From assembly GCA_001563305.1 (NCBI GenBank), contig CP013703.1, forward strand, positions 1,039,773 through 1,103,772: a stretch of DNA of 64,000 nt, given 5' to 3'. The notes beneath the pieces are model-generated. The model did not search any database. It had not been told where the DNA came from and saw nothing but the letters and a program-made list of their open reading frames with translations. The DNA comes from a methanogenic archaeon mixed culture ISO4-G1 (GTDB taxonomy: Archaea > Thermoplasmatota > Thermoplasmata > Methanomassiliicoccales > Methanomethylophilaceae). Each line of letters starts with the position of its first letter. Position 1 is the first letter of the stretch. Below are positions 4,368 to 54,563 of this stretch, one piece after another. Made by a program: the position numbers and the translations under genes.

Positions 4368-4567
4368 TTCATAACCCCTATTCTTTCGGTTGAACCTCAG
4401 TATATCGATTTCCTATATAAGGACACACGTTATTTTTATAGAGGAATAAAGGGAAATCTGCGCGTTGGACATGGATGTGTGGATCCTTTTATTTGTTTCC
4501 GGCGGTAAAGTGAGGACAATACCCTTTTAACCCCCATCGCACCTAGCCCCAGGTCAGAGACGATAAA

Positions 4568-22468: not shown

Positions 22469-23305
22469 ATGGATAAGAAAATCGGAATTATAGCCGTTGT
22501 CGCTGTAGTCATAGTCGTTGCAGCTGGAGCGATTGTTCTGACCAACGGTAAAGATCCTTCAGCCACAATCCTCGTTGAGGATCAGAATGGAGTTTTCTTC
22601 TGGACAGAGGGTTCAGGAAAGACCATTGCGGATTGTCTCGAGAAGACATCCGCAGGTGTAAAAGTAACAATGACTGACAGCTCATTCGGCAAGTACATCC
22701 AGGCAGTTAACGGACTTGCTGGAACCGAAGACTACACAGGATACTGGTCTGTTTATCAGTACAGCAACGGAGAATGGGTGTCATCAGAACTTGGAGTCTC
22801 AAGCCTTGAAACAAAAGATAACCAGTACATTGGACTGTTCTACGTAATCACGGACCCTGAGACATATGCAATTGTTCAGGGCGGTCCTGAGAAAGTAACC
22901 GTCCCCTCCATCACCGATGCAAAGGTCTGGGACGGATCAACCGACGGAGTCATCTTTGCACTTCAGGGAGAATCTGGATTGTACTGCTACATCAACAGCA
23001 CAGTCGGAGAGAACATGTCCGAGAGATTCGACGACGCATGCACCAAATACATGGTATCCCACAGTATGAGCTCCAGGGGAGGAATCTCCACCCTGTTCGG
23101 ACTCGGAAGCGTCCCTGTTGGAACTCAGGATGATGCCACCATCTACAAGTACTGGATCCAATACGGACTCGAGGACGGAAAGTGGACTTGGATGACCACC
23201 GGACTCAAGAACACCGATGCCAACGCATACAAACAGATGGCAATCTTCTACGGTGTCGGTTCCATGTATGGTGGAGAAGACCCCACTGTACCGGCTTACG
23301 CTTGA
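22469..23305 (+). CDS. N-terminally membrane-anchored extracytoplasmic protein with DUF4430/transcobalamin-beta-like module
   Basis: N-terminal TM (IIAVVAVVIVVAAGAIVL). Motif block DCLEK...VNG....YTGYWSVYQYSNGEW is shared with the N-termini of the next two proteins. Confidence 0.45.
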   Translation: MDKKIGIIAVVAVVIVVAAGAIVLTNGKDPSATILVEDQNGVFFWTEGSGKTIADCLEKTSAGVKVTMTDSSFGKYIQAVNGLAGTEDYTGYWSVYQYSNGEWVSSELGVSSLETKDNQYIGLFYVITDPETYAIVQGGPEKVTVPSITDAKVWDGSTDGVIFALQGESGLYCYINSTVGENMSERFDDACTKYMVSHSMSSRGGISTLFGLGSVPVGTQDDATIYKYWIQYGLEDGKWTWMTTGLKNTDANAYKQMAIFYGVGSMYGGEDPTVPAYA

Positions 23306-23349
23306 ACAACGTTTAAACAAACCTCTTCCAAACCCTTTTATTTGATAAA

Positions 23350-24714
23350 ATGAAAACATCCATGAAAGTTGTTTTGAGCCTTGTTCTGGTCTTCATTGGA
23401 ATAACTTTAGCGGTAGTTTTCACACCACAAGTGGAGTCGGCGTACGCACAGGGAATCATCCTAGATTTCGGGGATTATGACATTTACTATCTCGGTATTG
23501 ATGATGAGGATGAGAACGCAATCGATTCCGTCAACAAACTCTGCGACTACTATTCCATGTCGATAACATGGAACGGGAACCAGATCTCAAAGATTTCCAA
23601 GGAATATATTGATTATCCAGAATCAGGAAGCACAGCAACCTGGAAACTGTATATCAACGAAAAGGACACTATCGGTTGGAAACTGTTCGATGGATCCGCT
23701 GAAAAGCTCCACATCGGTGATTACTCGGCAGTTTGCTGGGGGCTCTGCGAAAAGGATGAGGAACCTACACCTGGCGTAGATGCCATGGGGATCTGCTTCT
23801 ACGGTTACGGACAAAGCTACCGCATTGTATCACTAGCACCGTCCTGTACCGAGACGATAGCCGCTTCAGGCGCTGGTAATATCATAGTCGGCGCCGATGA
23901 ATTCAGCAATTATCCGCTCTACATCAAACAAGCAATGGAGTCGGGTGCTATCGTTTCAGTTGGAGGGTACACCAATCCCAGTTACGAAGTGATAGCACAA
24001 TTGAATCCGGATATTGTTATAGGCGTTGCCGACCAGTCTACACATCGCTCAGTAATAGAAAAGATGAGGGCCCACGGGGTCCACTGTCTAGCCACCTACA
24101 CGGGTGACAGCATCAAGACAATCATGGACAATACGTACATGATCGGTGCGGCAATGAACTATCAGCTCAAATCCACACAGACCATGCAACAGATCGAGGA
24201 TGCACTGGAAATACTGGATGCAGAACTATCTTCCGGATTATCGCACAGATCTGATGTTATGATCTCCCTTTCAACCTCCAAATCACCCTGGGTGGCAGGA
24301 GGCAATACTTACGCTTCTGATGTAATAAGTCGCGCGTTGTGTAATAATATATACTCATCAGAAACAGGATGGGCGATGGTCAACAGTGAAACTGTTCCCT
24401 CGCGCGATCCTGAATATATCATCGTAGTTTCGTCTGATTACGGTAATACAGATGAAGACTACAATAACATGATCTCCTCCCTCTCTGCAGAATGGAGGAA
24501 TACAACTGCCTTCAAACAAGGTAACATCTTTTTGCTCACCGGAGGGGCCACAGATTTAGCATCTCGTCCTTCCACACGCATAGCACAATTCACAGAACTC
24601 ATGTGCAGGATGATCCAACCAGAAATCTTCAACGATATCAATCTACCTCATCACATCGGTGACGATTACAAGGATTACCTGACGATAACGAAAGAATTGG
24701 GGTTCGACACATGA
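23350..24714 (+). CDS. periplasmic-binding-protein (BtuF/FhuD class III) with extra N-terminal DUF4430-like domain
   Basis: Signal/TM at N-terminus. Residues about 150-454 are BtuF-like (IVSLAPSCTE..., NPDIVIG). The N-terminal 120 aa carry the W..Y.NG..W module. Confidence 0.65.
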   Translation: MKTSMKVVLSLVLVFIGITLAVVFTPQVESAYAQGIILDFGDYDIYYLGIDDEDENAIDSVNKLCDYYSMSITWNGNQISKISKEYIDYPESGSTATWKLYINEKDTIGWKLFDGSAEKLHIGDYSAVCWGLCEKDEEPTPGVDAMGICFYGYGQSYRIVSLAPSCTETIAASGAGNIIVGADEFSNYPLYIKQAMESGAIVSVGGYTNPSYEVIAQLNPDIVIGVADQSTHRSVIEKMRAHGVHCLATYTGDSIKTIMDNTYMIGAAMNYQLKSTQTMQQIEDALEILDAELSSGLSHRSDVMISLSTSKSPWVAGGNTYASDVISRALCNNIYSSETGWAMVNSETVPSRDPEYIIVVSSDYGNTDEDYNNMISSLSAEWRNTTAFKQGNIFLLTGGATDLASRPSTRIAQFTELMCRMIQPEIFNDINLPHHIGDDYKDYLTITKELGFDT

Positions 24715-27700
24715 TGAAACAGAACACGGTTCTAAAGACCTCTGCTTTGGTAGCGATCCTCGTGGTAACATCTCTCTTCCTGTTCGTGCCAGAGTTGGAT
24801 GCAGATGGTGCATACATCCTCATCGACAAAGGAGACGGAGACACCTATTGGTATTCCGGAACCACAGAGACAGTCGCTGATTCATTCAGTACGGCCGCCC
24901 AATCCCTGGGATTGGACCTGAACATCGACGGTTCTAAAATAACTGTTGACGGAGTATCTTCGATTACCATCGGAAGCCAAACCGTATCCTGGAGAATCTA
25001 TCAGTGGGGGGATGGATGGGTCGACGTCACATCTTCTATCGATATGAGCTCCGCGCCCACATCATCCATGGCCATCGGGTTGTATCCCGCGGGCACAACC
25101 CCTACCGAGACGCCCGCGTTCATGGACTCATGGACCCAGGTCCGCGGAAACGCCTCAATGACAGGTATACAGAATGCCAATCTGGATTCCGAGAAGACAA
25201 TGGAGAACGTACTAGCATGGTCAAGAGGGGATAACGACTACATCACCGGTTGCGTACTCGTGGCCCGTGAGCATGTCTATGGATTCTTCAACGGCGGATA
25301 CATGAACACCCAAAGTACCCCTGCATTGTTCTGCTTCAACAGATTTACGGGAGAGACAGAGTGGATCGTTAACGTTCCTGCAGGAGTCGGATATGAGACC
25401 ATGTCAGGCTGTATAGTCGGCGATTACTACTATCTCCCGACCAGTTACGGATACATCTACAGGATTCCACTGGATAACCCAGGTGAGGCCTCATACTATG
25501 TCCAGATGTCCTCAAGGCTCATGGTAGATGAGGACAAGATGCCTTCAGTGACTTCCGTGAAATATAAGGCAACAGGGGAAGGCACCTACCATGATGCCCC
25601 TCTGGAGATTATGGACACTAACGCTTTCGATATACCAGTCAGCATCGGATCTACCTATGACATCCAGATATCGGATAGTAGCAGAACCTACAACGGGACA
25701 TTAACCGTCAACAACGAAGATGCACTCGGGGTAAAAATAACCGGAAATACCGAAGAAGACAAGAGTCTCATCGGAGACTACTCCTCTCGCATAAGCTATT
25801 CGTATTCCGAAGTTACAAAGACATTCATCTCGAAGACCAGATCCCCGAACATGGAAGGGCGCACGATATACAACACTGGGCCCGCTTCCATCACATACTA
25901 CGGGGGCGCACTGTTCTTCGGCACCAGTTCAGGATACACCTATGCCCTGGATTTGGATCTAAATACCCTGTGGAAGACCGACGTTAGGAGTCAAAACTAC
26001 TACGATTCTGTCATGATTTGTGATGACAGAGTATTCGTGGGAACTTACAGCGGAAAACTGTACGCATTAGATGTCTCCACTGGAGAGATCAAAGCATCGG
26101 TAACAGCAGCCTCCTACCCATCCACCGTCTACGGTGACGGAGGAAGAGTCTGCACGCCTGTGAAAGTGGATGACATTCTATTCTTCTCATCATCCGACGG
26201 ATTAGGGATGAACAGTACCCAGGGAGGATTCTCTGCATACACATTCAAAAACGATTCGTTCACGAAGATCATGTCCAACACCGACTATGGTCAAGCCTCA
26301 ACATACATGACAGTAGTGATAAATACTGAATTCAAAGGAGTCTACTTTACCACAGATTACGGTCTGATGAGACTGTCCACCGATATGCAACTCGAGATCA
26401 TCAATGAGAAGATGACGGGAGTACGTGCATCCCCAGTGCTTGTCAACGGCGATACTCTCCTAATGCAGGATTACGCCTATGCCAAGAACAACGTGGGCGG
26501 ACAGATGTACAGAGTGACCCTCGATGGTACAATCGAAGGACAATACCAGAGGCCCAGTGAGGTGGATCAGTGGACTATGAGCCCAATCACGGCCATAGGC
26601 GAGTACCTGTACGGCGGAACAGATAATGGGTTCTTCATACTGGAAGGGAAAATGCCCGAAGTCAAAGATGATTCGGGCACCGGAGGGATCAATCCTCTAT
26701 GGATTGCTTTGGCGATAATCGCAGTTATAATCAACATACTGCTCATCATAAGCTTCTTCCTAGCCAAGAAGAGCAACATGTCGACGGGAAAATACATCGA
26801 ATCAAAATTCTCGAGGATCAGCGGATTCCACAACGACTCCATGTCAAAGACGCAGGCAAACAAACGTCGTCTATTGTTCGTCCTGATACTTGGAATCATA
26901 ATCATGCTTATCATGTTCATATGCTGTCTGGCATATGGGCCTTCGATGAGCCTCTCGCCCATAGATGCTTTCTCCAATCTGATATCCGCTATACAAAAAG
27001 GTGGAGAAGGATTGACTCTGTCCGAACTTGTTGTGTACGAATCGCGTCTACCTCGTGCGATAGCCGCGATTGCCGTAGGACTGGGATTAGCAGTAGCCGG
27101 TTGCATATATCAAGCTGTCATCCGTAACCCGATGGTGGACCCGTACATAATGGGTGTTTCATCCGGAGCAGGAACCTTCGCGGTTGCTGCCATAGCGAGC
27201 GGATTCACATTCTTTGGACTTCTGGATAACTCTGAATTCATGATTCCTGTCCTCGCGATTGTCGGTGGACTGCTCGCGTTTGGACTCACCATGCTTCTTG
27301 CCTCCAAGGCAGGGAACACGGCCACAGGGTATGTGCTTGCAGGAGTTGTTATCGGATTGGCGTTCACATCAATCCAGACGGTCATTTTGACAACATCTGA
27401 TTCGGAAAAGCTCCACAGTGCGATATCTTGGCTGTACGGAAGCTTCACCAGTGTCGATTGGGGAACCGTTTGGCTGATATTCTTCCCTGCACTGTTCCTA
27501 TCACTGACTTTCTTGATCTGGGCCAAGGAGCTGAATCTTGTTCTTCTGGGCGACGATAACGCACAACAAATGGGTCTGAATGTCAAAAAATTCGATGCCC
27601 TGATGCTCATACTTGCATCGGTCCTGACATCTGTCTGCGTCGCATTTGTGGGAATCATCGGATTTGTAGGACTGGTCGTTCCTCACATCTGCCGTATGAT

Positions 27701-27893
27701 CTTGGGAGGAGATCACAGGCTGGTCCTACCTGCATCAATGGTCCTAGGTGCAGCATTGATGCTGCTTGCGGATCTGTTGGCAAGAATGCTAATGATCCCG
27801 TTGGAATTACCAGTCGGTGCCATCACCACTGTCGTCGGAGTACCACTGTTCGCTTATCTACTCATTAAGAGAGGGAGGATGTACAATGGATGA
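24711..27893 (+). CDS. fusion protein: signal/TM anchor - DUF4430-like domain - PQQ-like beta-propeller - TM - FecCD/BtuC-type ABC permease
   Basis: 1060 aa. Residues about 380-620 hold repeated YALD..TG..W/K PQQ-type blades. Residues about 700-1060 are a canonical FecCD permease (RLPRAIAAIAVG..., GVSSGAG...). Confidence 0.75.
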   Translation: MMKQNTVLKTSALVAILVVTSLFLFVPELDADGAYILIDKGDGDTYWYSGTTETVADSFSTAAQSLGLDLNIDGSKITVDGVSSITIGSQTVSWRIYQWGDGWVDVTSSIDMSSAPTSSMAIGLYPAGTTPTETPAFMDSWTQVRGNASMTGIQNANLDSEKTMENVLAWSRGDNDYITGCVLVAREHVYGFFNGGYMNTQSTPALFCFNRFTGETEWIVNVPAGVGYETMSGCIVGDYYYLPTSYGYIYRIPLDNPGEASYYVQMSSRLMVDEDKMPSVTSVKYKATGEGTYHDAPLEIMDTNAFDIPVSIGSTYDIQISDSSRTYNGTLTVNNEDALGVKITGNTEEDKSLIGDYSSRISYSYSEVTKTFISKTRSPNMEGRTIYNTGPASITYYGGALFFGTSSGYTYALDLDLNTLWKTDVRSQNYYDSVMICDDRVFVGTYSGKLYALDVSTGEIKASVTAASYPSTVYGDGGRVCTPVKVDDILFFSSSDGLGMNSTQGGFSAYTFKNDSFTKIMSNTDYGQASTYMTVVINTEFKGVYFTTDYGLMRLSTDMQLEIINEKMTGVRASPVLVNGDTLLMQDYAYAKNNVGGQMYRVTLDGTIEGQYQRPSEVDQWTMSPITAIGEYLYGGTDNGFFILEGKMPEVKDDSGTGGINPLWIALAIIAVIINILLIISFFLAKKSNMSTGKYIESKFSRISGFHNDSMSKTQANKRRLLFVLILGIIIMLIMFICCLAYGPSMSLSPIDAFSNLISAIQKGGEGLTLSELVVYESRLPRAIAAIAVGLGLAVAGCIYQAVIRNPMVDPYIMGVSSGAGTFAVAAIASGFTFFGLLDNSEFMIPVLAIVGGLLAFGLTMLLASKAGNTATGYVLAGVVIGLAFTSIQTVILTTSDSEKLHSAISWLYGSFTSVDWGTVWLIFFPALFLSLTFLIWAKELNLVLLGDDNAQQMGLNVKKFDALMLILASVLTSVCVAFVGIIGFVGLVVPHICRMILGGDHRLVLPASMVLGAALMLLADLLARMLMIPLELPVGAITTVVGVPLFAYLLIKRGRMYNG

Positions 27894-28689
27894 AACACCG
27901 CTTCTTGAGGTCAGAAACCTCAACAAAATCTACGACAATGGATACCATGCGGTACGCGACGTATCATACAAGCTACCGTCCGGCAAACTCGTCGGATTAA
28001 TCGGACCGAACGGGTGCGGTAAATCCACAATGATGAGGTGCATCAACAAAATGCACTCTATCACATCCGGTGATGTTCTGATCGATGGTATATCGGTCCT
28101 TGACCAGAATGTCACAGAGATTGCAAAACAAGTCGCCAATGTGCCAGCAGAACTGAAAAACAGCTTTGGACTCACCGTTTATGAAACGGTCATGTTAGGC
28201 CGCTACCCGTATCTGAGGAACCTTTGGTGGGAGACCAACGAGGATGAATCGGATGTCATCGATGCCATGAAGAAATTTGGTGTCGACCACCTTCAAGATA
28301 GGCAGATTAATATGCTCTCATCAGGAGAGATGCAGAGAGTACTGATTGCCAAGGCATATGTTCAGAACCCCAGATTAATGCTGGTCGATGAACCAACATC
28401 ACACCTTGACATGAAGTACAAACTGAACGTCATGGAATATTTGCGTGCAATGGTACGTCAGGATATGACGGTTCTTGTCGCGGAACACGATATTTCCCTT
28501 ATGGCAAGATATTGTGATCTCTGCATCATCATGAAGAAAGGAGAGTTAGTGACGATAGGAGATCCGAAAGAGGTCATCACAGAAGAGTTAGTGCGCGATG
28601 TCTACGATGTCGTAGCCAATGTGGGCGTGGACAAAGATGGAGAAATATACGTCCTACCAAAAAGATTCGTAGGAAATTACGAACTATGA
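27886..28689 (+). CDS. ABC transporter ATP-binding protein (FecE/BtuD-like)
   Basis: Walker A GPNGCGKST, signature LSSGEMQRV, Walker B LMLVDEPTSHLD. Start MDETPLLEV overlaps the permease stop. Confidence 0.85.
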   Translation: MDETPLLEVRNLNKIYDNGYHAVRDVSYKLPSGKLVGLIGPNGCGKSTMMRCINKMHSITSGDVLIDGISVLDQNVTEIAKQVANVPAELKNSFGLTVYETVMLGRYPYLRNLWWETNEDESDVIDAMKKFGVDHLQDRQINMLSSGEMQRVLIAKAYVQNPRLMLVDEPTSHLDMKYKLNVMEYLRAMVRQDMTVLVAEHDISLMARYCDLCIIMKKGELVTIGDPKEVITEELVRDVYDVVANVGVDKDGEIYVLPKRFVGNYEL

Positions 28690-36956: not shown

Positions 36957-37499
36957 TCAGTCCGGGAGATTGTCCCTGACGCTGTTTATCCTCTTGACGA
37001 CCTGGATGTACTTCTCGTGCTCGGCATCGGCGGCCTTCTTGCAATCGAGATACTGCTGGTGGCACTCCTGCGCCTCGTCCCTGAGCCTGTCGGCCTCCTC
37101 GAACATCTGATGCATCTTCTCGTGGAGAGCCTGACCGCTGGCGTTGCATTTCACCATCTTCTGATGGTATGTGTCGGCCATCTGCCTGGCGCCATTGATG
37201 TCACCTAACCCGCCACGCTCCTTCATCATCTTGGCCTTGTCGTTCCACTCGTCGCGCTTCTGCTTGGCCTCCCTTGCGGAAAGGTTGTAGTCGTCCCTCT
37301 GGTCCTTCATGGCCCTTGCCTCGGACGACAGCCTCCTGGCCTTCTCCTGCAGCTTATCGCGCTTCTCGGCCAGGACGTCGGCCTGCTGATGGAACCTGTC
37401 CCTCTCGGACTTGTGCTCGGCAGCCTCCTTGTTCAGCTGGTGCAGGATCTCGTCCAGGCTGCGGAGGTCCTGCTCGACGCTATCGGAAATCTCGCTCAT
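36957..37499 (-). CDS. coiled-coil protein (hypothetical)
   Basis: About 180 aa, highly charged with heptad-like K/E/R/D/Q composition. Start set at MSEISDS. Confidence 0.4.
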   Translation of the reverse strand: MSEISDSVEQDLRSLDEILHQLNKEAAEHKSERDRFHQQADVLAEKRDKLQEKARRLSSEARAMKDQRDDYNLSAREAKQKRDEWNDKAKMMKERGGLGDINGARQMADTYHQKMVKCNASGQALHEKMHQMFEEADRLRDEAQECHQQYLDCKKAADAEHEKYIQVVKRINSVRDNLPD

Positions 37500-37542
37500 G
37501 GGATACGAAAGGATAATGTGCAACGCGGATATATTGTAAGCG

Positions 37543-37779
37543 ATGACCAACGAGGCGTACCGCAAATGCAAGACCTGCAGATACTGCAACCACAAGGATG
37601 AGATGTGGGTGTGCGTCCTGACGTCGTCCAGCACCGGCCCCGAGTCCACATGCGAGAGGTACAGGCCGGGATGCTGCGAGAACTGCGGGAGCTATTCCGG
37701 AGGCGTGTGCAGGAGGAACGGCGAGGAGAAATACGAGCTGGACGTCTGCAGCGATTACGACCCTTCAGGTTCCCTCTGA
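37543..37779 (+). CDS. small cysteine-rich protein (78 aa, 10 Cys)
   Basis: CKTCRYC...WVC and CERYRPGCCENCG...GGVC clusters. Has its own upstream A/T box. Confidence 0.4.
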   Translation: MTNEAYRKCKTCRYCNHKDEMWVCVLTSSSTGPESTCERYRPGCCENCGSYSGGVCRRNGEEKYELDVCSDYDPSGSL

Positions 37780-38676
37780 CATCCTCTGCTTCCTGTTGGA
37801 GAGCATGTTCTTGACGCTCTTCTTCGCGGTGGAGCTCCCCATCACGACCTTCTTCGCCGAATCCGGGATCCCCATGTAGACTATGTTGTCGCATATCCCC
37901 GTGGAGCACCTCATCTGACCCCTGACCTTGGAATACGATTCCTGGAGGAGCCCTATCTCCCCGTTGAGCATGGATGTGATCTCGTACACGTGCTTCATCC
38001 TGAAGTCGCTGGCGTTGGTGTAACCGGTCTCCGGCAGGAGGGGGTTGTACGTCCCTTCCATGAAATCCTCGTCCAGATCGTCCACCACATCCATCAGGTA
38101 GACTACGGTGCTGAGGTGCCTGAACACATCATCCAGATCGTCGCTGGCGTGCTCCCCGGCGATATCCCTGAGCGCCCCGATCAGGCCCTCCCCGAACGTC
38201 CTGCCCATGAGGACCGCATCCTTGCATCCCTGCTGTTCCAGATCGCGGAGGTTCGAGAATCCATCCCCCACCATCCTATCGTATTCCGGGAACTGCTCCA
38301 CGGCCTTCTCTATAGCCTTGGCCAAGGTCACGGATGCCAGCTTGGACTTGACCGAGGGCTTGTCGCTCTCGTCGTCCTGGAGCTCCCATTTGGTCAGGAT
38401 CAGTGTGTAGGCGGCCATCTTCCTCATGAGGTCGGAATCCGCCTTCGGCCTGTCCAGGACGCATAACCTGCTCTTCGTCCCTTCGAAATCCAATACGTCC
38501 CCCGCGATGCTGTTGAGGAGGATCGTGTTGAACGTCATGTCGTAGTTGACCGTCAGAGTGCTCGCGACCCCGAAACCGTCCCTGAGATGATGGCAGCCCT
38601 CGCAGTAGTACCTGCGGTAGACCTTGTTGTCCGCAGGGGAGAGCCTGTTGTAGTACGGCAGGGTGTAGCCGAGCAT
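37765..38676 (-). CDS. hypothetical protein with N-terminal Y-Y-C-E-G-C-H-H motif (303 aa)
   Basis: Intact ORF, divergent from the Cys-rich peptide/rSAM pair. No family assigned from sequence alone. Confidence 0.45.
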   Translation of the reverse strand: MLGYTLPYYNRLSPADNKVYRRYYCEGCHHLRDGFGVASTLTVNYDMTFNTILLNSIAGDVLDFEGTKSRLCVLDRPKADSDLMRKMAAYTLILTKWELQDDESDKPSVKSKLASVTLAKAIEKAVEQFPEYDRMVGDGFSNLRDLEQQGCKDAVLMGRTFGEGLIGALRDIAGEHASDDLDDVFRHLSTVVYLMDVVDDLDEDFMEGTYNPLLPETGYTNASDFRMKHVYEITSMLNGEIGLLQESYSKVRGQMRCSTGICDNIVYMGIPDSAKKVVMGSSTAKKSVKNMLSNRKQRMSEGT

Positions 38677-38814
38677 AAGCAGACATCAATCACGGACGAT
38701 TAATGGTTTCCCATCCAGTAACCGGAAAAACCAGGTCTTTGCCAACCGCCAATGATTATATAATAAGAAATTATTTGACGGAATATCAGACCCCCGCTGA
38801 TAAGGTGAATTTCA

Positions 38815-39123
38815 ATGTCCTACGATGCAGAATCCGTCGACAAACTGACCGCACTGTATGTGAGCCAATCTCCCAACGCTTTCATCGCATTCTCCATGGA
38901 GGGGCTCCCGCAGGACAACCAGCACGCAGAGCGCTTCGACAAGGGAGCCGATGCGGAGCACAGCGAACTCACCTCATGCGACTACTGCTGCTGCAACGAC
39001 AAGGGATACTGCAACAGCTGGGGATGGCACCTCTGCGTCATCGGAACCGTCGTGGTCCTCGTGGCGTGCTGCTGCTACGCCACCGATGGATTCTTCGGCG
39101 TCTGGCCCTACTGGCCCTTCTGA
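38815..39123 (+). CDS. Cys-rich peptide (102 aa; candidate RiPP precursor or membrane-anchored Cys-rich peptide)
   Basis: N-terminal about 50 aa is leader-like. The C-terminal SCDYCCCNDKGYCNSWGWHLCVIGTVVVLVACCCYATDGFFGVWPYWPF has 9 Cys including two CCC triplets. It sits 48 bp upstream of a radical SAM/SPASM gene. Confidence 0.45.
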   Translation: MSYDAESVDKLTALYVSQSPNAFIAFSMEGLPQDNQHAERFDKGADAEHSELTSCDYCCCNDKGYCNSWGWHLCVIGTVVVLVACCCYATDGFFGVWPYWPF

Positions 39124-39171
39124 TCCGTCTGAAGTCCGTTCCTTTGCATCGTGGGACGGACCAGGGTTATC

Positions 39172-40296
39172 ATGAAGCCTCATATCACCATCGTCATCAA
39201 ACCGACATTATTCTGCAACACCGATTGCAAGCACTGTTACCACCCTCCCGAGGAGAGGGTCAAAGGGGACATCCCGCTGGAAAGGGTGGAGAAGATCATA
39301 AGGCTCGCCTCGCAGGAGTATCAGAGCGCCTGGTTCATCTGGCATGGAGGGGAGCCCATGACGCTGCCGATGTCGTTCTACAAGGAGGTCATCGGCCTCG
39401 AGGAGAAGTACTTCGGCAAGGACTCCATGAGATACGGGAACACCATCAACACCAACGGCACCCTTCTCAACAGGAGATTCATGGCGTACTGCCGTGAGAA
39501 GAAGATCAACATAGGCGTCTCTTACGAGGGGCCCTACAACGGCATCCTCAGGGCGGAGAATCTGGAGAAGACCTTGGGGACGCTCTCCGCCAAGGAGAAC
39601 ATGTATTCCGTCAGCGCCACCATCTCCAAGGAGACCGCATCGAAGCAGGCGGAGATATATAGGTACTTCAGGGACAAGGACATCGCGACGACGTTCGCCC
39701 CGGTCATCGGTGCAGGCTGCGGGAAGCCTTACGTACCGGACACGGAGGAGTTCGTCAAAGGGAGCATAGAGGCCTTCGACGAGTGGCTATACGACAACAA
39801 GGCTAGGGTCCCCCTCATGCCGTTCTACCAGTACATCAGGAACTATCTCGGGGAGCCCATACCCTCCGACTGTGCCCACACGTCCTGCCTGACCAAATGG
39901 ATCTGCCTGTACCCTGACGGTTCGCTGTATCCGTGCTCCAAGGCATGTCCCAAGGAATTCCTCATGGGGAACATCGATTCCGTCTCCTCGATAGACGAGG
40001 CATTCCAGTCCGAGGGCTTCAGGAACATCCTCATCGGCTCGATAAAGAGGCGCGAGAGATGTGCCAGCTGTGAGATATTCAAGTTCTGCAACGGAGGATG
40101 CAGCATAGATGCATGCTACGAGAACGGGCTCGAGGAGAATGGAGGCGCATCCTGCGAATCTTACAAGGCGATCTTCTCGCACGTCGTCGGCGAGATCCAG
40201 AGGATACTCGACGAGAAACCCGATATGGATGTTTATAACCCCTTTGTGAAGGATGCGGTCATCAACAAGCTGATCAATCCGAAGACCGTCGGATGA
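39172..40296 (+). CDS. radical SAM enzyme with SPASM domain (anSME / peptide-maturase-like)
   Basis: CNTDCKHC (Cx3Cx2C) at the N-terminus and C-terminal auxiliary-cluster cysteines (CxxCxxxxxCxxxC: CASCEIFKFCNGGCSIDAC; plus CSKAC). Confidence 0.8.
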   Translation: MKPHITIVIKPTLFCNTDCKHCYHPPEERVKGDIPLERVEKIIRLASQEYQSAWFIWHGGEPMTLPMSFYKEVIGLEEKYFGKDSMRYGNTINTNGTLLNRRFMAYCREKKINIGVSYEGPYNGILRAENLEKTLGTLSAKENMYSVSATISKETASKQAEIYRYFRDKDIATTFAPVIGAGCGKPYVPDTEEFVKGSIEAFDEWLYDNKARVPLMPFYQYIRNYLGEPIPSDCAHTSCLTKWICLYPDGSLYPCSKACPKEFLMGNIDSVSSIDEAFQSEGFRNILIGSIKRRERCASCEIFKFCNGGCSIDACYENGLEENGGASCESYKAIFSHVVGEIQRILDEKPDMDVYNPFVKDAVINKLINPKTVG

Positions 40297-41202
40297 TCAG
40301 TCGAAGATGCCCGTGCTCATGTACTTGTCCCCGCCATCAGGCAGGATTGCGAGTATGACCTTGTCAGGCCCCTCTTCCGCTTTTCTGAGGGCTGCGTACA
40401 CCGCCGCACCCGATGATATGCCGCAGAATATCCCCTCCTTCCTGGCCATCTCCACGGTCGTGGCTATCGCATCGTCGCCCTTCACAGCCACTACATCGGC
40501 CAGCAGGGACCTGTCGAATATGCTAGGAACGAAGTTCGCACCGATCCCCTGGATCTTGTGGGGGCCGGCCTTCCCTTCCGTCACCAGAGGGCTCTCGTAG
40601 GGCTCCACCCCTATGACCTTTGCCTTGGACCCGGCATCCCTGAAAGCCATCGCCAGACCGCAAGCGGTCCCTGCGGTCCCGAATCCAGCGAACACGTAAT
40701 CGACATCCGGGAGGTCGCGGAGTATCTCCTTGCCGGTCCCGACACGGTGTGCGACCGCGTTCATCGGGTTGTCGAACTGCCCGCATATCCATCCGCCGGT
40801 CTCCTTGGCGATCTCCTCCGCCTTCCTCACGGCCCCTCCCATGCCCTCGCTGCCCGGGGTCAGTACTATCTCGGCCCCATAAGCATGTATGGCCTGCCTC
40901 CTCTCAACGGACATTGTGTCAGGCATGACGATTATGGCCCTGTAACCGCGGACGGCGGAGATCATCGCTATCGCGATACCGGTGTTGCCCGAAGTGGGCT
41001 CCACTATAGTTCCGCCCTCCTTCAGTATGCCCCTCGCCACGGCATCCTCTATCATCGAGAGCACCGCACGGTCCTTGATGGATCCACCGGGATTCCCGCG
41101 CTCCGGTTTGACATAGACCTTCGAACCCTCCTTGGGAAGGCGGTTCAGACGGACTATGGGCGTCTCTCCGATCGTTTCGATGATGCTGTCGTATATGGGC
41201 AT
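40297..41202 (-). CDS. cysK: cysteine synthase (O-acetylserine sulfhydrylase), PLP-dependent
   Basis: PLP-lysine context GGSIKDR, GNTG loop, about 301 aa. Start at internal MPIYDS. Confidence 0.8.
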   Translation of the reverse strand: MPIYDSIIETIGETPIVRLNRLPKEGSKVYVKPERGNPGGSIKDRAVLSMIEDAVARGILKEGGTIVEPTSGNTGIAIAMISAVRGYRAIIVMPDTMSVERRQAIHAYGAEIVLTPGSEGMGGAVRKAEEIAKETGGWICGQFDNPMNAVAHRVGTGKEILRDLPDVDYVFAGFGTAGTACGLAMAFRDAGSKAKVIGVEPYESPLVTEGKAGPHKIQGIGANFVPSIFDRSLLADVVAVKGDDAIATTVEMARKEGIFCGISSGAAVYAALRKAEEGPDKVILAILPDGGDKYMSTGIFD

Positions 41203-41284
41203 GCGGGGAAAATCGCGCGGACCCGTAATTAATGTATCGGACACCGACCAAACGCTAAAATTCTGGTCCCTGTTAACGGGCATC

Positions 41285-42647
41285 ATGGAGTACTCGGCAT
41301 CGGAGGTCAGGGCGGTTCAGCTTGCATGCTACGTCTCGGCGTTCATCACGCCCCTGCTGAGTACCATGATGAACCTCTCGCTGATCAACATCGGAGAGGA
41401 CTTCGATGTGGGATCCCACGATCTGGCCTACATCAACTCTGCTTTCCTCCTGGCATCGGTCATATTCATGGTCCCGTTCGCCAAGCTCGCAGACATCGTC
41501 GGGAAGAAGAGACTGTTCGTTATAGGGCTGCTTCATCGCCTGCTTCGCACCGGTATTCTGGGTGGTCATCCTGGGAAGGGCGATCATAGGCGTAGGCGCC
41601 TCATCGCTGGCTATGGTCAGCATATCCATACTCACGGATGTGGTCCCGCCGGAGAGGAGAGGGACCGCCATCGGATATCAGACAATGTTCGTCTACATGG
41701 GACTATCCTTCGGACCCGCCCTCGGCGGAGCCCTGAACGACCTGGTCGGATGGAGGCTGCTGTTCCTGATCACCGTCCCGATGGCCGTAGCATCGACGAT
41801 CATCATTCTGACCGGATTCCACAAAGAGATCGCGGTCGACAAGGACGGGTCGTTCGACCTCAGGAACTCGGTGCTGTACGGAGCGGCGATGCTGCTCTCC
41901 ATGGGCGGTGTGATGAACCTCCCGGCGGTTTGGGCGGCAGTCTGCGTCGTTATCGGAATACTCCTGCTGGCACTGTTCGTGAGATCACAGATCAACAACA
42001 GCAGATGCCTCCTGAACATGGGACTGTTCAAGAACTGGACCTTCAGCGGGTCCTGCCTCGCCGCATTCATGAACTACGCCTCGTCGTTCTCGATATCCTT
42101 CTTCCTCGCGCTGTACCTGCAGAGCATCGGCGGGCTCACCGCCACTGAAGCAGGTCTGCTAATGATAGTCCAGCCCGTGGTCCAGTGCATATTCACCCCG
42201 TTCTTCGGCAAACTTACCGACAGGATTTCGAACAAGATCATACTCCCCACAGTGGGAATGATCCTCACGTCCATCTGCATCCTGACCTATGTGTTCTACA
42301 CCCTGGACACACCGAAATACGTCGTGGCCATGTCGATGGTAATCGGAGGTTTCGGATTCGCGATGTTCTCGGCTCCGAACAGCACCCTGATCATGTCCTC
42401 CGTCCCCAAGGAGCACTCCAGCGAGGCCTCCGCAGTACTGTCCGTCATGAGACAGACCGGGATGATGGTCAGCATGGGCATCGCCATGACATACATCACC
42501 GTGATCATGGGTTCCACCGACAATCTCGGTCCCGAGACCTACGGCCTGTTCCTTCAGGTCTTGGAGCTCTCCATGATCACCTGCTTCATCATGTGCATCA
42601 TCGGGACGATAGCCTCGATTTCCAGAGGCAAACCTAAACAATTTTAA
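41285..42647 (+). pseudogene. MFS transporter gene interrupted by a +1 frameshift near 41524-41528 (GGG run)
   Basis: Frame-2 ORF encodes TM1-3 up to ...KKRLFVIG. Frame 0 continues directly with GCFIACFAPVFWVVILGRAIIGVGASS... (MFS TM4/5). Deleting one G from 'ataggg' restores a single roughly 450-aa MFS protein. Confidence 0.5.
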
Positions 42648-51434: not shown

Positions 51435-53051
51435 TCACTGGACCAATCTCAGGGAGTCGTACTTATAGACTTTCTTGGGGCAACTGAACTGGCATCTGTA
51501 GCATGCGGTTCCGAGACAGTTCTTGGTCTGTACCACGATCTCGTTGTCGTCCATGACCTTCAGTGCATGCTCGGGGCATTCGTTCTCGCATTTCTTGCAG
51601 CCAATGCAGCCTTCCATGTATCCGCGAAGCTCGGTCCCGATGTCGTGAAGGATGAAGAGCCCTCTGTCACCCAGATCAGGGATGTCACGCTGGACCATCC
51701 TGTGGACCGTGGGGTTACCGGTCGGTTTCGGCAGCTCCTGTATGCCGGCGATCGCGTTGTTCCTGTTGTACATCTCCATGCTCATGCCCTCGTCGCAGAC
51801 CGCGAGTTCCTGGGTGTAGATCTGCTCGAACACCTCGTCCCCGGCGAACATTATGTGGTTGGCCCTGATGCCGTTGGCTATGTCCTGGAGCTTATCCAGC
51901 AGCTCTGGGTCCCTGAGGATGTCCGTAGCCATTGCCAGCGATGTATTCCCGTACTGGTAGATCGTGTTGCACGAAGGGGGCAAGAGTCCCACCTTCCTGG
52001 CCTTGACAGCATCCACGTATGTACCGGATGCGCCGGCCATGTACATGATGTCCAGATCGCTGAACTTGATGCCTGCGTGCTCCAGAAGGGTGAAGTGACC
52101 GGCCCTCATCGCACCGATGGCCTTCAGGGCCTCCGATATGTCGTGTGAATCGATGGTGATACCATCCTGCAGATGGAGCAGCCCGTCGCTGGTGTCGATC
52201 TTCCCCTTCCTCCACAGATGGGCCTCGAGAAGGGCGGATACGGCCGCGATCACACCTGTTCCGGTGATACCTTTGGCCTTCCCGCTCATCGGACCCTCCG
52301 GCGTGACGGTCTCCAGGGCTATGTCGACCCTGTCGCCGTTCTCAGGTATTATATCGTCATTCAGGACCTTGCATATGTACTGGAAGTCGTACTCCAGGTC
52401 CGAGATGGCCCCGGGCCCGGCGAGCATACCGCATCTTATGGACTGGCCTTCCATGGCAGGTCCGGCCGCGGCCGAACCCGTGTATATGTCGTCGCCGACC
52501 TTCAGCGCCATCTCCGCGTTCGTACCGTAATCCGTGACGAGGCAGTTCTCCTTCTGCTCGAGGAAACCGCTCTTGTACATCATGGCCAAGGCGTCCGCAC
52601 CGATCTCGTGCCTGATGGCCGGAGGGACCAATAATTCGCATCCGTCCTTGACATCGAGACCGACGTCCACCGCGGAGAATGTACCAGCATCCCTCTTCTG
52701 GGCGACTATCCCTCTTGCCTTGTGGGCGTTGTCGCCTGCGAACGCAAGATCGTCCACGGGGATCCCCTGGAAGAGCGACAGCTGGATAGGGTTTCCGCAG
52801 ATGCTTACCCTCTCGACCTTGTTCAGATCGACGCCTAGGGTCCTGATCAGCTTGTTAACGGTATCCATCAGGATGTTGTGGGCCGTCTCAGTGCCGTTGT
52901 TGATGCAGAACGTAAGGTGATCCATGATGTTGGCACCCGGCAAGGGATGACATTCCGTGACAGATGTCGAAAGGATCCTGCCGTTCGAGAGATCGACCGC
53001 ATGACCCCTTGTTCCGCTCGTACCTATATCCAGGGAAATACCGTAACTCAT
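51435..53051 (-). CDS. ramA: RamA-like corrinoid reductive activation protein (ASKHA ATPase + 2x[4Fe-4S] ferredoxin domain)
   Basis: 538 aa with a C-terminal CIGCKKCENECP...CYRCQFSCP. Positioned between mtaB and the cobW-like gene. Confidence 0.7.
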   Translation of the reverse strand: MSYGISLDIGTSGTRGHAVDLSNGRILSTSVTECHPLPGANIMDHLTFCINNGTETAHNILMDTVNKLIRTLGVDLNKVERVSICGNPIQLSLFQGIPVDDLAFAGDNAHKARGIVAQKRDAGTFSAVDVGLDVKDGCELLVPPAIRHEIGADALAMMYKSGFLEQKENCLVTDYGTNAEMALKVGDDIYTGSAAAGPAMEGQSIRCGMLAGPGAISDLEYDFQYICKVLNDDIIPENGDRVDIALETVTPEGPMSGKAKGITGTGVIAAVSALLEAHLWRKGKIDTSDGLLHLQDGITIDSHDISEALKAIGAMRAGHFTLLEHAGIKFSDLDIMYMAGASGTYVDAVKARKVGLLPPSCNTIYQYGNTSLAMATDILRDPELLDKLQDIANGIRANHIMFAGDEVFEQIYTQELAVCDEGMSMEMYNRNNAIAGIQELPKPTGNPTVHRMVQRDIPDLGDRGLFILHDIGTELRGYMEGCIGCKKCENECPEHALKVMDDNEIVVQTKNCLGTACYRCQFSCPKKVYKYDSLRLVQ

Positions 53052-53161
53052 AGTATCATCTCAGCTGCACCTACGAAATATGCTTACAAATATGTGAATG
53101 TTGGAGGTCCCGGCGATACGAGGAGATCGGACCCGCCGGTAAATGGTTTTCAAGGGGGAAT

Positions 53162-54562
53162 TCAGAGTCCGTAGTTCTTCATGTTGAAGTTGGGGACGAT
53201 GTCCTTGTACTCCTTTGCTGCCCACTCGACGAACTTGTCCTCGTCATCGGGGAGTGCGGAGAGCTTCTTGTTGATGTCCTGGAGGGTCTCGAGCTGCTTG
53301 GTGGTGAGTCCGAGCTCCTTGGATTCGTAGCCCTTAAGGAGGATCTCGACTGCCTTGGTTCCGGCGGCCTTGGCCCTGAGGTAGAGGTTGTCACCGTACT
53401 GGGCGATTGCCTTTCCAATCTCGTATGCGTGGTCGTACGCGAGGATGTATGCCTCGGGTCCTCTGTACCTGTCAGAGTACATGTACATGTCCCTGAGGGT
53501 CTTCTCCTGCTTGAGCTGGATCGCGGTGTTCATGAGTGAGGCCTCGTATCCGATCGATCCGAACCAGCACTGGACGGAGGTTCCTCCGAACTCGGGGTGG
53601 TACTCGACGGACTCGTTGGACCACAGGTCACAGCACTGGGCGATGAGGTTACCCTGCAGATCGCAGTGTGCGCACTGGCAGTTCTTTCCCTCCTGTGCGG
53701 TGGGCTTTCCTGCGATGGCTTTGACGATGGGTCCCTCGTAACCGCAGTCCTTGTCGGGACCGACGGCTCCGGCCTCCCAGGCGCAGAGCGTCCTTGCGGC
53801 GGAGATTGCACGGGTGACGGCGGAGAAGGTCCTCTGGACATCCTGGTCCATCATTCCTCCGGCCATGAACATGGAAACGTTCGCTCCGGAACAGTTGGTG
53901 TCTCCTCCCGCAACGCAGTGGTTCTTCTTCGCGATGTCGACGAGCTGCTCCCAGAGCCAGGTCATATCGATGGATCCGAGGTAACCGACTCCGAACAGGA
54001 ATGCGACGATGTCTCCGTTGGTGACTGCGTAATCTGCGAACTCCTTTCCTCCGACAGACTCGATGGAGAGGTTGTTGCATCCGTTCTCACATGCGATGTC
54101 CGCACACTCGAACAGCTTCTCGGGATAGGCGTGGGCGGAGTCCATGCCGGGCCTGAGTCCGTGGTCGGCCTCACGCTGGTCGGGGATGGTCTGCCTGGTA
54201 CCGCAGTTGAGTCCGTACTCCTCGTGGTACTTCTCGCACATCTCCTGCTGTCCCGCGACGACGGGTGCGGAGAGCTTGGCCTGGTTCATCTGGGAGACCC
54301 ACTCGGTCTCGAGCTGGACATTGGGGAATCCGACTGTGAGTGCCCTGTTGAGGATGTCCTTGGTGATGTAGTCCACGTACTCCTTTCTGAGCCTCTCGGG
54401 ATCCTTCTCGGTTCCGGGCCTGGGTGCGTAGTTGATCTCGGGGATGACGTATCCGGCTCCGATCTTCAGACCGAATCCGTAGGACACGGGATTCTTCGAG
54501 AAACCGAAGACCATGTCGTCTGCACAGTCGTATGCCATCTTTGTGTATCTTGATACTGCCAT
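53162..54562 (-). CDS. mtaB: methanol:corrinoid methyltransferase MtaB
   Basis: 466 aa, collinear with Methanosarcina MtaB from the N-terminus (MAVSRYTKMAY...EINYAPRP...) to the C-terminus (ENYG). Confidence 0.9.
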   Translation of the reverse strand: MAVSRYTKMAYDCADDMVFGFSKNPVSYGFGLKIGAGYVIPEINYAPRPGTEKDPERLRKEYVDYITKDILNRALTVGFPNVQLETEWVSQMNQAKLSAPVVAGQQEMCEKYHEEYGLNCGTRQTIPDQREADHGLRPGMDSAHAYPEKLFECADIACENGCNNLSIESVGGKEFADYAVTNGDIVAFLFGVGYLGSIDMTWLWEQLVDIAKKNHCVAGGDTNCSGANVSMFMAGGMMDQDVQRTFSAVTRAISAARTLCAWEAGAVGPDKDCGYEGPIVKAIAGKPTAQEGKNCQCAHCDLQGNLIAQCCDLWSNESVEYHPEFGGTSVQCWFGSIGYEASLMNTAIQLKQEKTLRDMYMYSDRYRGPEAYILAYDHAYEIGKAIAQYGDNLYLRAKAAGTKAVEILLKGYESKELGLTTKQLETLQDINKKLSALPDDEDKFVEWAAKEYKDIVPNFNMKNYGL

Positions 54563-54563
54563 C

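Follow-up and report, generated by a model that had tools for sequence, protein, structure and literature searches.

A cysteine-string peptide and a radical SAM/SPASM enzyme encoded beside DUF5685 in a methanogenic archaeon

What does a radical S-adenosylmethionine (rSAM) enzyme of the SPASM type act on in a methanogen, when the gene directly before it encodes a peptide of 102 residues that ends in a string of cysteines? This question is raised by a locus in the methanogenic archaeon mixed culture ISO4-G1 (family Methanomethylophilaceae), situated in a stretch of 64,000 nucleotides that was analysed as a whole (contig CP013703.1, positions 1,039,773 to 1,103,772; hereafter the window). The locus comprises four genes, encoding a 78-aa Cys-rich protein, a divergently transcribed 303-aa protein, the 102-aa Cys-rich peptide and the rSAM enzyme. 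A first-pass annotation of the window had placed the peptide and the enzyme among the RiPP (ribosomally synthesised, post-translationally modified peptide) systems of the ranthipeptide/SCIFF/CcpM type. The results presented here lead to a different reading, to which we give about an even chance: the locus may encode a system, specific to this lineage, for the maturation of a Cys-string membrane protein that is kept in the cell, with cross-linking by the rSAM enzyme and possibly prenylation, and not a classical secreted RiPP. Within this picture, the best-supported reading of the gene arrangement is that the rSAM enzyme would be the dedicated maturase of the 102-aa protein.

The peptide and the rSAM enzyme in methanogens

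The open reading frame (ORF) listing of the window confirmed all four genes (Table 1). Searches with the rSAM enzyme returned 306 homologues at E <= 1e-3 and those with the peptide 66 clusters; the named homologues were all from Methanomassiliicoccales-type archaea, including Ca. Methanoplasma termitum and Ca. Methanoprimaticola. The best matches to the enzyme came from uncultured Methanomethylophilaceae or "Thermoplasmata" metagenome-assembled genomes from rumen and gut, and a look-up of its exact sequence gave no record. A scan of one genome per species yielded 111 relatives; 80 loci, with identities down to 50%, were retained, and the taxonomic range was established for Methanomethylophilus-, Methanoplasma-, Methanogranum- and Methanoprimaticola-type genomes. 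As judged by ORF and HMM analysis, the peptide gene was located directly upstream of the rSAM gene in 79 of the 80 loci, the sole exception being a contig that begins within the rSAM gene. The distance from the peptide stop to the rSAM start was 1–53 nt, on the same strand, in all 56 loci for which the rSAM start had been placed automatically. These counts bear out both the proposal of the first-pass annotation that a Cys-rich peptide and an rSAM/SPASM enzyme form a dedicated pair and the adjacency of the two genes in related genomes, by which it had suggested the pairing be checked.

The other two genes travel with this pair, as the compact cluster described in the annotation had suggested. 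The gene for the 303-aa protein, which we identified as a member of the DUF5685 family, was found within 8 kb upstream in 40 of the 42 loci with enough flanking sequence, always on the opposite strand, and the gene for the 78-aa protein was placed beside it, overlapping its 3' end, in 39 of the 42. Reciprocal look-ups starting from DUF5685 recovered the same gene arrangement. The block is composed of two tight modules, the 78-aa protein with DUF5685 and the peptide with the rSAM enzyme. Its outer neighbours vary by lineage (coiled-coil protein, isochorismatase, acetyltransferase, PDT, cysK, homoserine O-succinyltransferase (HTS), an MFS transporter of housekeeping synteny and similar genes), with no peptidase and no ABC exporter among them, and neither a protease, an exporter nor a gene for a RiPP recognition element (RRE) was detected by Pfam and NCBIfam searches in or beside the block or in the neighbourhoods of the relatives. 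In several cases a genome record with this archaeal block bears a bacterial title (Bacteroides ovatus, Dialister hominis, Prevotella hominis, Lachnospiraceae and others; locus records L021, L023, L025, L027, L037, L041, L042, L047 and L048), and these look like mislabelled public bins.

All four genes are under purifying selection. The dN/dS values, computed against six relatives, were 0.08–0.28 for the peptide, 0.14–0.35 for the 78-aa protein, 0.09–0.22 for the rSAM enzyme and 0.11–0.31 for DUF5685. Both small ORFs are kept as proteins down to approximately 50% rSAM identity, and judged by this conservation they are real genes. They are also strongly enriched in cysteine relative to the window-wide background of 1.8%, with 9 of 48 residues in the peptide (binomial p = 1.6e-7) and 10 of 78 residues in the 78-aa protein (p = 1.3e-6). 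A 264-aa ORF at 38703-39497 (+) runs over the peptide gene in another frame; we take it to be spurious, since the homologues and the dN/dS values support the peptide frame and spurious ORFs are numerous in GC-rich sequence such as this. The window contains many other long ORFs that share sequence with real genes but are read in a different frame or from the opposite strand, for example at 37496-37909 (-).

The peptide is present in a single copy in the window. Its nine cysteines occupy positions 55, 58–60, 66, 74 and 85–87, the stretches 58–60 and 85–87 being the two CCC triplets that had drawn attention to the ORF in the first place. An alignment of 78 distinct C-terminal halves gave a core consensus in three parts: C-x-Y-x-C-C-x-[DE]-x-G-x-C, followed by a hydrophobic stretch of about 18 residues in which Cys, Val, Gly and Ile abound, and finally C-C-C-Y-x-T-x-G-F-x-G-x-[WY]-x-[YW]-W-P-[F/N/L/A]. 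These cores contain 8–13 cysteines each, and several Cys positions vary while the aromatic tail GFxGxWxYWP is invariant. A hydrophobic Cys-rich helix extends over approximately residues 70–90 and ends in CCCY, with a Kyte-Doolittle mean that peaks at 2.9. The AlphaFold2 (AF2) model of the peptide places a helix at residues 69–89 (pLDDT about 80–87), which is its sole confidently predicted element. Since only 12 residues follow the hydrophobic helix before the C-terminus, the peptide looks like a tail-anchored Cys-string membrane protein.

The leader-like N-terminal part, residues 1–54, contains two predicted helices (3–17 and 20–29, from AF2 secondary structure of low confidence), a LYxxQxP motif and then an acidic/His linker. 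A divergent sub-family of the peptide is encoded upstream of the rSAM gene in L059, L060, L063, L064, L066, L075, L076 and L079-L081; its members are extended at the N-terminus by a long stretch rich in Lys, Ala and Glu, their leader is replaced (ARAMMANKLYTRQLPDVLPENYNEA) and they end in WPN instead of WPF, and they keep the Cys/transmembrane (TM)/aromatic core together with LYxxQxP. This motif is the best candidate for a recognition element, because the divergent sub-family retains it while having lost most of the leader. The peptide had no match in Pfam or NCBIfam and fitted no known precursor family, and the CxPxR sulfatase motif is absent from it. Given its length of about 100 aa, its TM-like Cys-rich helix, its conservation over the whole length and the lack of a nearby protease or exporter, it is easier to see in it a small membrane protein that undergoes modification than a RiPP destined for secretion.

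The most likely start of the rSAM gene is the ATG at 39172, which is shared with homologues of 374–377 aa. The CX3CX2C motif is formed by C15, C19 and C22, all invariant, and PF04055 matched with 41.3 bits (threshold 29.5). Compared with the seven-Cys SPASM pattern, CX9-15GX4C ... CX2CX5CX3C ... C, the enzyme displays C239-x10-G250-x4-C255, then C297xxC300x5C306x3C310 and then C328, plus C234; all of these are invariant, and the SPASM model TIGR04085 scored 40.5 bits (cutoff 27). As judged by these residues, the enzyme holds ligands for three [4Fe-4S] clusters, two of them auxiliary, and the architecture of an anaerobic sulfatase-maturating enzyme (anSME) with a full SPASM domain, as first annotated, is complete in its Cys set. 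An N-terminal RRE is absent: CX3CX2C begins at residue 15, which leaves no room for one, and CteB aligns only from its residue 104 onwards, so that its residues 1–103 (the RRE) have no counterpart in the enzyme.

All named NCBIfam families stayed below cutoff for the enzyme. The scores were 148.1 bits for DynA (NF041298; cutoff 450), 147.8 for anSME TIGR03942 (cutoff 349.45), 111.4 for the methanogen peptide-modifying rSAM family TIGR04083 (cutoff 300), 108.9 for PRK13758, also an anSME model (cutoff 441), 93 for GrrM/OscB (cutoff 310), 92 for CbpB (cutoff 375), 77 for DarW, 75 for AmcB and 72.5 for DarE (NF038005; cutoff 650). Lower values were obtained for PapB (NF047865; 53.9 bits, cutoff 340), CcpM (TIGR04068; 40.8 bits, cutoff 500, with a match that covers only the rSAM core, residues 14–129), the quinohemoprotein maturase (39 bits), the SCIFF maturase (TIGR03974; 38.8 bits, cutoff 425), the mycofactocin rSAM (38 bits) and NirJ-type models (33 bits). 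The comparison with SCIFF, CcpM and anSME models, which the first-pass annotation had named as a check, therefore did not return a family for the enzyme, nor the peptide a precursor family, and the proposed ranthipeptide/SCIFF/CcpM assignment finds no support: the relevant models reached 39–54 bits against cutoffs of 340–500, there is no RRE, and the enzyme is closest to anSME and to DynA/cyclophane-type maturases.

The best match among solved structures was anSMEcpe (4K36; E = 4e-37), aligned over the full length (residues 4–346 versus 3–364). Cys276-Asp277 of anSME aligns to Cys255-Ser256 of the enzyme, and the family has Ala, Ser or Gly at the second of these positions, followed by an invariant Lys (YPC-S/A/G-K versus YPC-D). 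Asp277 of anSMEcpe is the proposed catalytic base, and since it is replaced throughout the family of the present enzyme, a formylglycine-generating role is unlikely. The 64-kb window contains no sulfatase signature (C/S-x-P/A-x-R), in agreement with the earlier remark that no sulfatase is nearby. According to a published analysis, similarity over the whole sequence predicts chemistry poorly in the anSME/DarE region of sequence space: DarE is closest in sequence to anSME, yet it forms aromatic cross-links (PMC10288494).

DUF5685 and the 78-aa protein

The 303-aa protein with the YYCEGCHH motif matched PF18937 (DUF5685) with 142.9 bits versus 26.7, its residues 1–275 aligning to profile positions 1–271 of 272. 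An AF2 model built on 34 homologues was all-alpha (pLDDT 82, pTM 0.83), and Foldseek related it to the trans-isoprenyl-diphosphate-synthase superfamily, with weak E-values and TM-scores of approximately 0.5. DUF5685 is thus predicted to adopt the all-alpha trans-isoprenyl-diphosphate-synthase/prenyltransferase fold (class I terpenoid synthase superfamily); as there is no similarity at the sequence level, this fold assignment depends on the predicted model. C25, C28 and C72 are invariant in bacterial and archaeal DUF5685. The DDESD motif is situated at the C-terminal end of helix 82–105, with D101 and D105 invariant in archaea and bacteria, and the Asp residues of DVVDDLDED are invariant or near-invariant across the two domains. 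As judged by these alignments, DUF5685 displays two Asp-rich motifs (DDxxD type), candidate counterparts of the metal-binding first and second Asp-rich motifs (FARM/SARM) of isoprenyl diphosphate synthases.

The ten cysteines of the 78-aa protein, which the first-pass annotation had counted correctly, are arranged in two half-sites, C9-x2-C12-x2-C15-x8-C24-x12-C37 and C44C45-x2-C48-x7-C56-x12-C69. The orthologues show 58–68% identity, and all ten cysteines are invariant in those aligned. Judged by this Cys pattern alone, the protein probably binds a metal or an Fe-S cluster. It had no match in Pfam or NCBIfam. A phmmer search against 1.84 billion representative proteins gave 15 matches, approximately 12 of which are true small relatives, the remainder being one read-through artefact and low-complexity matches; with so few relatives in so large a set, the family is lineage-restricted. 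An apparent 401-aa fusion of the 78-aa protein, deposited as such (P0310), was rejected as an artefact, being a read-through of the DUF5685 antisense frame.

DUF5685 is also found in bacteria, where we examined two plasmid/chromid matches (Pusillibacter and Subdoligranulum) and 80 metagenome loci. Among the 67 loci with at least 750 nt downstream of DUF5685, all but one (66 of 67) encode a protein of approximately 210 aa with a J domain and TPR immediately 3' of DUF5685, often overlapping it. These J-proteins matched PF00226 with 52–66 bits, and in 65 of the 66 the last 35 residues contain 5–12 cysteines, as in CDCCSSLICADCCCECMGGDLIPCC; there are 55 distinct tails, and the consensus is CxxCxxLxCADCCCECMGGDLIxCC. 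The eukaryotic cysteine-string protein (CSP) is anchored to membranes by lipidation of its Cys string (PMC4447612). A literature search on DUF5685, bacterial cysteine-string proteins, ChlB and the DUF5685/J-protein pairing found nothing relevant, and the Clostridia-type cysteine-string J-protein is apparently undescribed.

Two further arrangements were seen at bacterial DUF5685 loci. A Cys-motif membrane protein of the RseC family (SoxR-reducing system) is encoded immediately upstream of DUF5685 at L087:6586-6996, with equivalents in L089-L097 and L100; an RseC-like gene as a general partner of DUF5685 was rejected, as it was found in 10 of 65 bacterial loci only, all from the Pusillibacter group. 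A DUF5685 sub-clade in termite-gut metagenome contigs has no J-protein gene next downstream, and the following ORF there is old-yellow-enzyme-like (L129:1019-1897; L132:61-912).

Proposed pathway and rival explanations

According to the reading that we prefer, the peptide and the rSAM enzyme would be co-transcribed from the divergent promoter region, and the enzyme, needing no RRE for this, would make direct contact with the leader region around LYxxQxP, in the manner of anSME-type enzymes. Reductive cleavage of SAM would give the 5'-deoxyadenosyl radical, a hydrogen atom would be abstracted from a core residue, and in this way at least one cross-link within the C-terminal core would be closed while the protein is still in the cytoplasm; the modified protein would then be inserted post-translationally as a tail-anchored membrane protein. 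Two additional steps are the weakest links of this scheme, namely that DUF5685 might bind a prenyl diphosphate via Mg2+ and its DDxxD motifs and S-prenylate the Cys string, and that the 78-aa protein might serve as a metal/Fe-S accessory, for instance as electron donor or chaperone. The bacterial loci offer a parallel in favour of the scheme, since DUF5685 has Cys-rich partner proteins there as well.

With regard to the type of cross-link, an aromatic C-C (or C-X) bond in the invariant tail has, by analogy, a chance only slightly short of even. It is favoured because the nearest peptide-modifying relatives of the enzyme are daropeptide/cyclophane formers, because several Cys positions are less strictly kept than the tail WxYWP, and because sacti- and ranthisynthase models score poorly. 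A Cys thioether is a weaker candidate, though still a sizeable one. As for DUF5685, a bolder idea can be formulated: it could represent a new protein-lipidating class, an S-prenyltransferase of isoprenoid-synthase fold for Cys strings, which in Clostridia would anchor a J-domain/TPR co-chaperone (a prokaryotic CSP analogue) and in methanogens, acting jointly with the RRE-less rSAM/SPASM enzyme, would yield a cross-linked and prenylated tail-anchored Cys-string protein. We regard this idea as rather unlikely.

Several observations weigh against the reading as a whole. It is the adjacency of the two genes, and nothing else, that suggests the peptide as the substrate; the type of cross-link is a guess from family resemblance, and the AF2 model of the peptide is of low confidence overall (pLDDT 65). 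The suggested prenylation role of DUF5685 is drawn from its predicted fold and its gene neighbourhood only. DUF5685 has no sequence match to isoprenoid enzymes (no PDB sequence match was found, and Pfam at E <= 10 gave only DUF5685 itself), and we know of no Cys prenyltransferase with the isoprenyl-diphosphate-synthase fold. The two modules of the block are split by insertions in L005/L006 (a DUF1016/YhcG pair) and in L017, L023 and L027 (2–2.5 kb), and L035 has no DUF5685 within 8 kb; in view of this separation DUF5685 may be functionally independent. The bacterial DUF5685 loci contain no rSAM gene and no homologue of the peptide or of the 78-aa protein. Moreover, the bacterial Cys-string tails show no detectable homology to the archaeal Cys-rich proteins (hhalign probability 0.3% versus the 78-aa protein and 0.1% versus the peptide), so that the likeness between the two domains is thematic: in each, DUF5685 has a neighbour whose C-terminal region is a cysteine string. 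For the bacterial tails, the invariant D/E/GGD residues are just as compatible with metal binding.

These objections lend some strength to the possibility that the block contains two independent modules, the peptide with the rSAM enzyme and DUF5685 with the 78-aa protein, the function of the latter being shared with Clostridia and the adjacency being inherited synteny. The splitting by insertions or distance in several genomes, the locus without a nearby DUF5685 and the bacterial DUF5685 loci without rSAM or peptide homologues all fit this possibility, to which we assign a considerable, if clearly less than even, chance; against it, adjacency and divergence are retained in 40 of 42 loci down to approximately 50% rSAM identity despite reshuffled flanks, and in both domains the neighbour of DUF5685 has a Cys-rich, partly hydrophobic C-terminal region. 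The view of the first-pass annotation, in which the 102-aa protein would be the precursor of a classical RiPP that receives thioether cross-links of the ranthipeptide/SCIFF-like kind and is released as a signalling or antimicrobial peptide, is in our judgement rather unlikely. The low scores of the SCIFF, CcpM and PapB models and the missing RRE speak against it, as do the absence of the peptide from any precursor family, its hydrophobic helix of approximately 20 residues and the purifying selection along its full length; no peptidase or transporter is present in the block, and it is the aromatic tail that is invariant while several cysteines vary. The points in its favour are the Cys-rich core beside a full SPASM enzyme and the leader-like N-terminal region with a conserved motif, and SCIFF is likewise lineage-wide and has no dedicated protease or exporter.

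The remaining explanations assign the enzyme another substrate. It might act on a non-peptide molecule, such as an isoprenoid membrane lipid or a tetrapyrrole, with the peptide as membrane anchor or partner and DUF5685 supplying or binding the isoprenoid. Some SPASM/twitch enzymes (AhbD, NirJ, BtrN) do use non-peptide substrates, a protein of isoprenoid-synthase fold beside an rSAM enzyme would make sense in an archaeon with ether lipids, and the 102-aa protein looks membrane-embedded. We nevertheless find this quite improbable, given that the closest families (anSME, DynA, GrrM, DarE) are all protein or peptide modifiers while NirJ-type models reached 33 bits, that the cytoplasm-facing motifs and the aromatic tail of the peptide are invariant as in a substrate, and that the gene partner of bacterial DUF5685 encodes a soluble J-protein, with no link to lipid genes. 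SPASM enzymes also start both the PQQ and the mycofactocin pathway, and the C-terminal aromatics could accordingly be cross-linked and excised to give a lineage-specific redox cofactor, an idea that agrees with the lineage-wide, housekeeping-like conservation and with the W/Y residues near the C-terminus. Here, however, an RRE/PqqD-like protein, a peptidase and a downstream tailoring enzyme are all lacking, the mycofactocin and quinohemoprotein models scored 38 and 39 bits, the last residue varies (F/N/L/A), and the TM helix and the Cys string are left unexplained, which makes a cofactor very improbable. Finally, anSMEcpe as the best structure match, the identical architecture and a TIGR03942 score that ties for the top might suggest a true anSME for a sulfatase encoded elsewhere. 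This explanation has next to no chance in our estimate, and the identity was rejected on the score (148 bits versus 349), the replacement of Asp277 by Ser, Ala or Gly and the lack of a sulfatase signature in the window; the obligate coupling to a Cys-rich peptide without CxPxR argues in the same direction. The maturation of a Cys-string membrane protein that stays in the cell is the reading that we prefer.

Genomic setting and comparison with known systems

The coordinates of the features discussed above are collected in Table 1. The divergent region between the DUF5685 and peptide genes is a putative promoter region; it contains an AT-rich TATA-like element, TTATATAATAA, at 38756-38766, and a Shine-Dalgarno-like AGGTGA is found at 38803-38808, ahead of the peptide ATG. 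The genes for the 78-aa protein and DUF5685 are convergent, and their 3' ends overlap by 15 nt. That the cluster is bounded by convergent genes, as had been annotated, is correct for the right border, where rSAM and cysK converge with a gap of 0 nt and cysK abuts the rSAM stop codon, whereas at the left border the 78-aa gene is oriented head-to-head with a coiled-coil gene.

Table 1. Positions of the genes, motifs and regions under discussion (window coordinates unless a locus record is named)
Feature	Position	Strand	Evidence
78-aa protein with ten Cys	37543-37779	+	ORF; orthologue alignment; dN/dS
DUF5685 protein, 303 aa	37765-38676	-	PF18937 match; YYCEGCHH = residues 23-30
DUF5685 second Asp-rich motif DVVDDLDED, residues 196-204	38065-38091	-	Alignments
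DUF5685 first Asp-rich motif DDESD, residues 101-105 (DDxxD pattern)	38362-38376	-	Alignments
DUF5685 N-terminal CxxC(H) motif CEGCH, residues 25-29	38590-38604	-	Alignments, archaea and bacteria
Divergent intergenic region, 138 bp	38677-38814	.	Read from sequence; promoter role inferred
Cys-rich peptide, 102 aa	38815-39123	+	ORF; homologues; dN/dS
Leader-like part of peptide, residues 1-54	38815-38976	+	Alignments; low-confidence AF2 secondary structure
Core of peptide, residues 55-102, with stop codon	38977-39123	+	Conservation; hydropathy; AF2
rSAM/SPASM enzyme, 374 aa	39172-40296	+	PF04055; TIGR04085; alignment to anSMEcpe 4K36
rSAM motif CNTDCKHC (CX3CX2C, SAM-binding [4Fe-4S] cluster)	39214-39237	+	Invariant Cys in alignment
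SPASM region, residues 234-328	39871-40155	+	Eight invariant Cys
Bacterial DUF5685 and J-protein loci	L087:7001-8508; L088:6965-8570; L089-L168

The cysK gene at the right border (window 40297-41286 (-)) encodes a cysteine synthase (cysK/M, 370 bits). Genes of sulfur amino-acid metabolism recur immediately beside the rSAM gene, and convergent with it, in relatives (L003:7139-8969; L171:1350-3180), HTS being among them; these neighbours could be coincidental synteny or could be related to the Cys-rich products. The insert in L005/L006 is a nuclease-like DUF1016_N/YhcG_C gene pair at 4039-5442, between DUF5685 and the peptide–rSAM pair. Elsewhere in the window, at 51435-55346 (-) and 59376-61609 (-), we found genes for the methanol methyltransferase MtaB (687 bits), MtaC, a RACo-type (RamA-like) corrinoid activase and two nitrogenase-component-1-type (CfbD-like) proteins, a gene set that confirms the host as a methyl-reducing (methylotrophic) methanogen. 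The stretch at 22469-28689 (+) has a GC content of 0.48 versus about 0.57. Its products are an ABC ATPase, a binding protein of the Peripla_BP_2 type and a 1060-aa protein in which a beta-propeller-like part is fused to a FecCD permease; the stretch is possibly an acquired Fe/corrinoid-type uptake system. Rfam and tRNA scans of the window detected tRNAs only, none of them inside the locus.

A search of the available literature on rSAM or RiPP systems of Methanomassiliicoccales found nothing relevant, and the system appears undescribed, in line with the initial remark that such pairs are little described in methanogens. Pairs of rSAM/SPASM enzymes and peptides have been mined mainly in bacteria, whereas the present pair is a fixed trait of a major methanogen clade of gut and rumen. 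Such clade-wide fixation points to a role in physiology, as opposed to secondary metabolism that could be dispensed with, and could offer a lineage-specific handle on methane producers. As the enzyme falls in the poorly charted space between anSME and the darobactin/dynobactin/cyclophane maturases, its chemistry could be new. The predicted fold of DUF5685, together with its near-obligate cysteine-string partner in Clostridia, leads to a testable hypothesis of prokaryotic protein lipidation or metal handling; if true, lipidation of Cys strings by DUF5685 in Clostridia and methanogens would be categorically new, and for now it is a lead.

When compared with known systems, the enzyme resembles anSMEcpe (4K36) in that its rSAM core starts at the N-terminus, no RRE is present and a complete SPASM domain provides for two auxiliary clusters; it differs from anSME in its score below the cutoff, in the missing Asp277 and in its partner, which is a Cys-string peptide and not a C/SxPxR sulfatase. 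The daropeptide/cyclophane maturases (DynA, DarE, DarW, GrrM/OscB, AmcB, XyeB) are among the highest-ranking peptide-maturase models, and the aromatic C-terminal motif of the peptide (WxYWPF) presumably recalls the C-terminal cores of DarA and DynA. In contrast to these systems, the scores are far below cutoff, the substrate would be a protein of approximately 100 aa with a TM-like Cys-rich helix, hallmarks of export or BamA targeting are absent, and the host is an archaeon. A feature shared with DarE is that the sequence of the enzyme lies nearer to anSME than to the other rSAM enzymes of RiPP pathways (PMC10288494). With the SCIFF/CteB, CcpM and PapB systems the locus shares a Cys-rich precursor beside an rSAM/SPASM enzyme, and with SCIFF also the lineage-wide conservation and the lack of a protease or exporter, but it differs from them in the low scores, in having no CteB-type RRE and in a peptide that is twice as long and carries a hydrophobic helix.

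With regard to the neighbouring genes, DUF5685 shows no sequence similarity to the prenyltransferases ComQ/ComX and MoeN5 and has an additional N-terminal CxxC...C, and its acceptor, its donor and even its catalysis are putative. A Cys string as in CSP is found both in the archaeal 102-aa protein and in the bacterial J-proteins that are partners of DUF5685. Unlike CSP, the archaeal protein has no J domain, while the bacterial J-proteins combine a J domain with a Cys string; their tails have invariant D/E/GGD residues, and homology to CSP is confined to the J domain. The lipid that we propose would moreover be an isoprenoid held in thioether linkage, where CSP has a palmitoyl thioester. By membership, the system belongs only to the rSAM superfamily, the SPASM family and DUF5685, each specific family tested having failed at its cutoff or at a defining feature, and by function it resembles RiPP-type rSAM/SPASM maturation. 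Judged from the sequences, its new features relative to these known systems would be an archaeal, RRE-less enzyme, a substrate of approximately 100 aa that carries both a Cys string and a TM-like helix, and the coupling to a DUF protein of predicted prenyltransferase fold.

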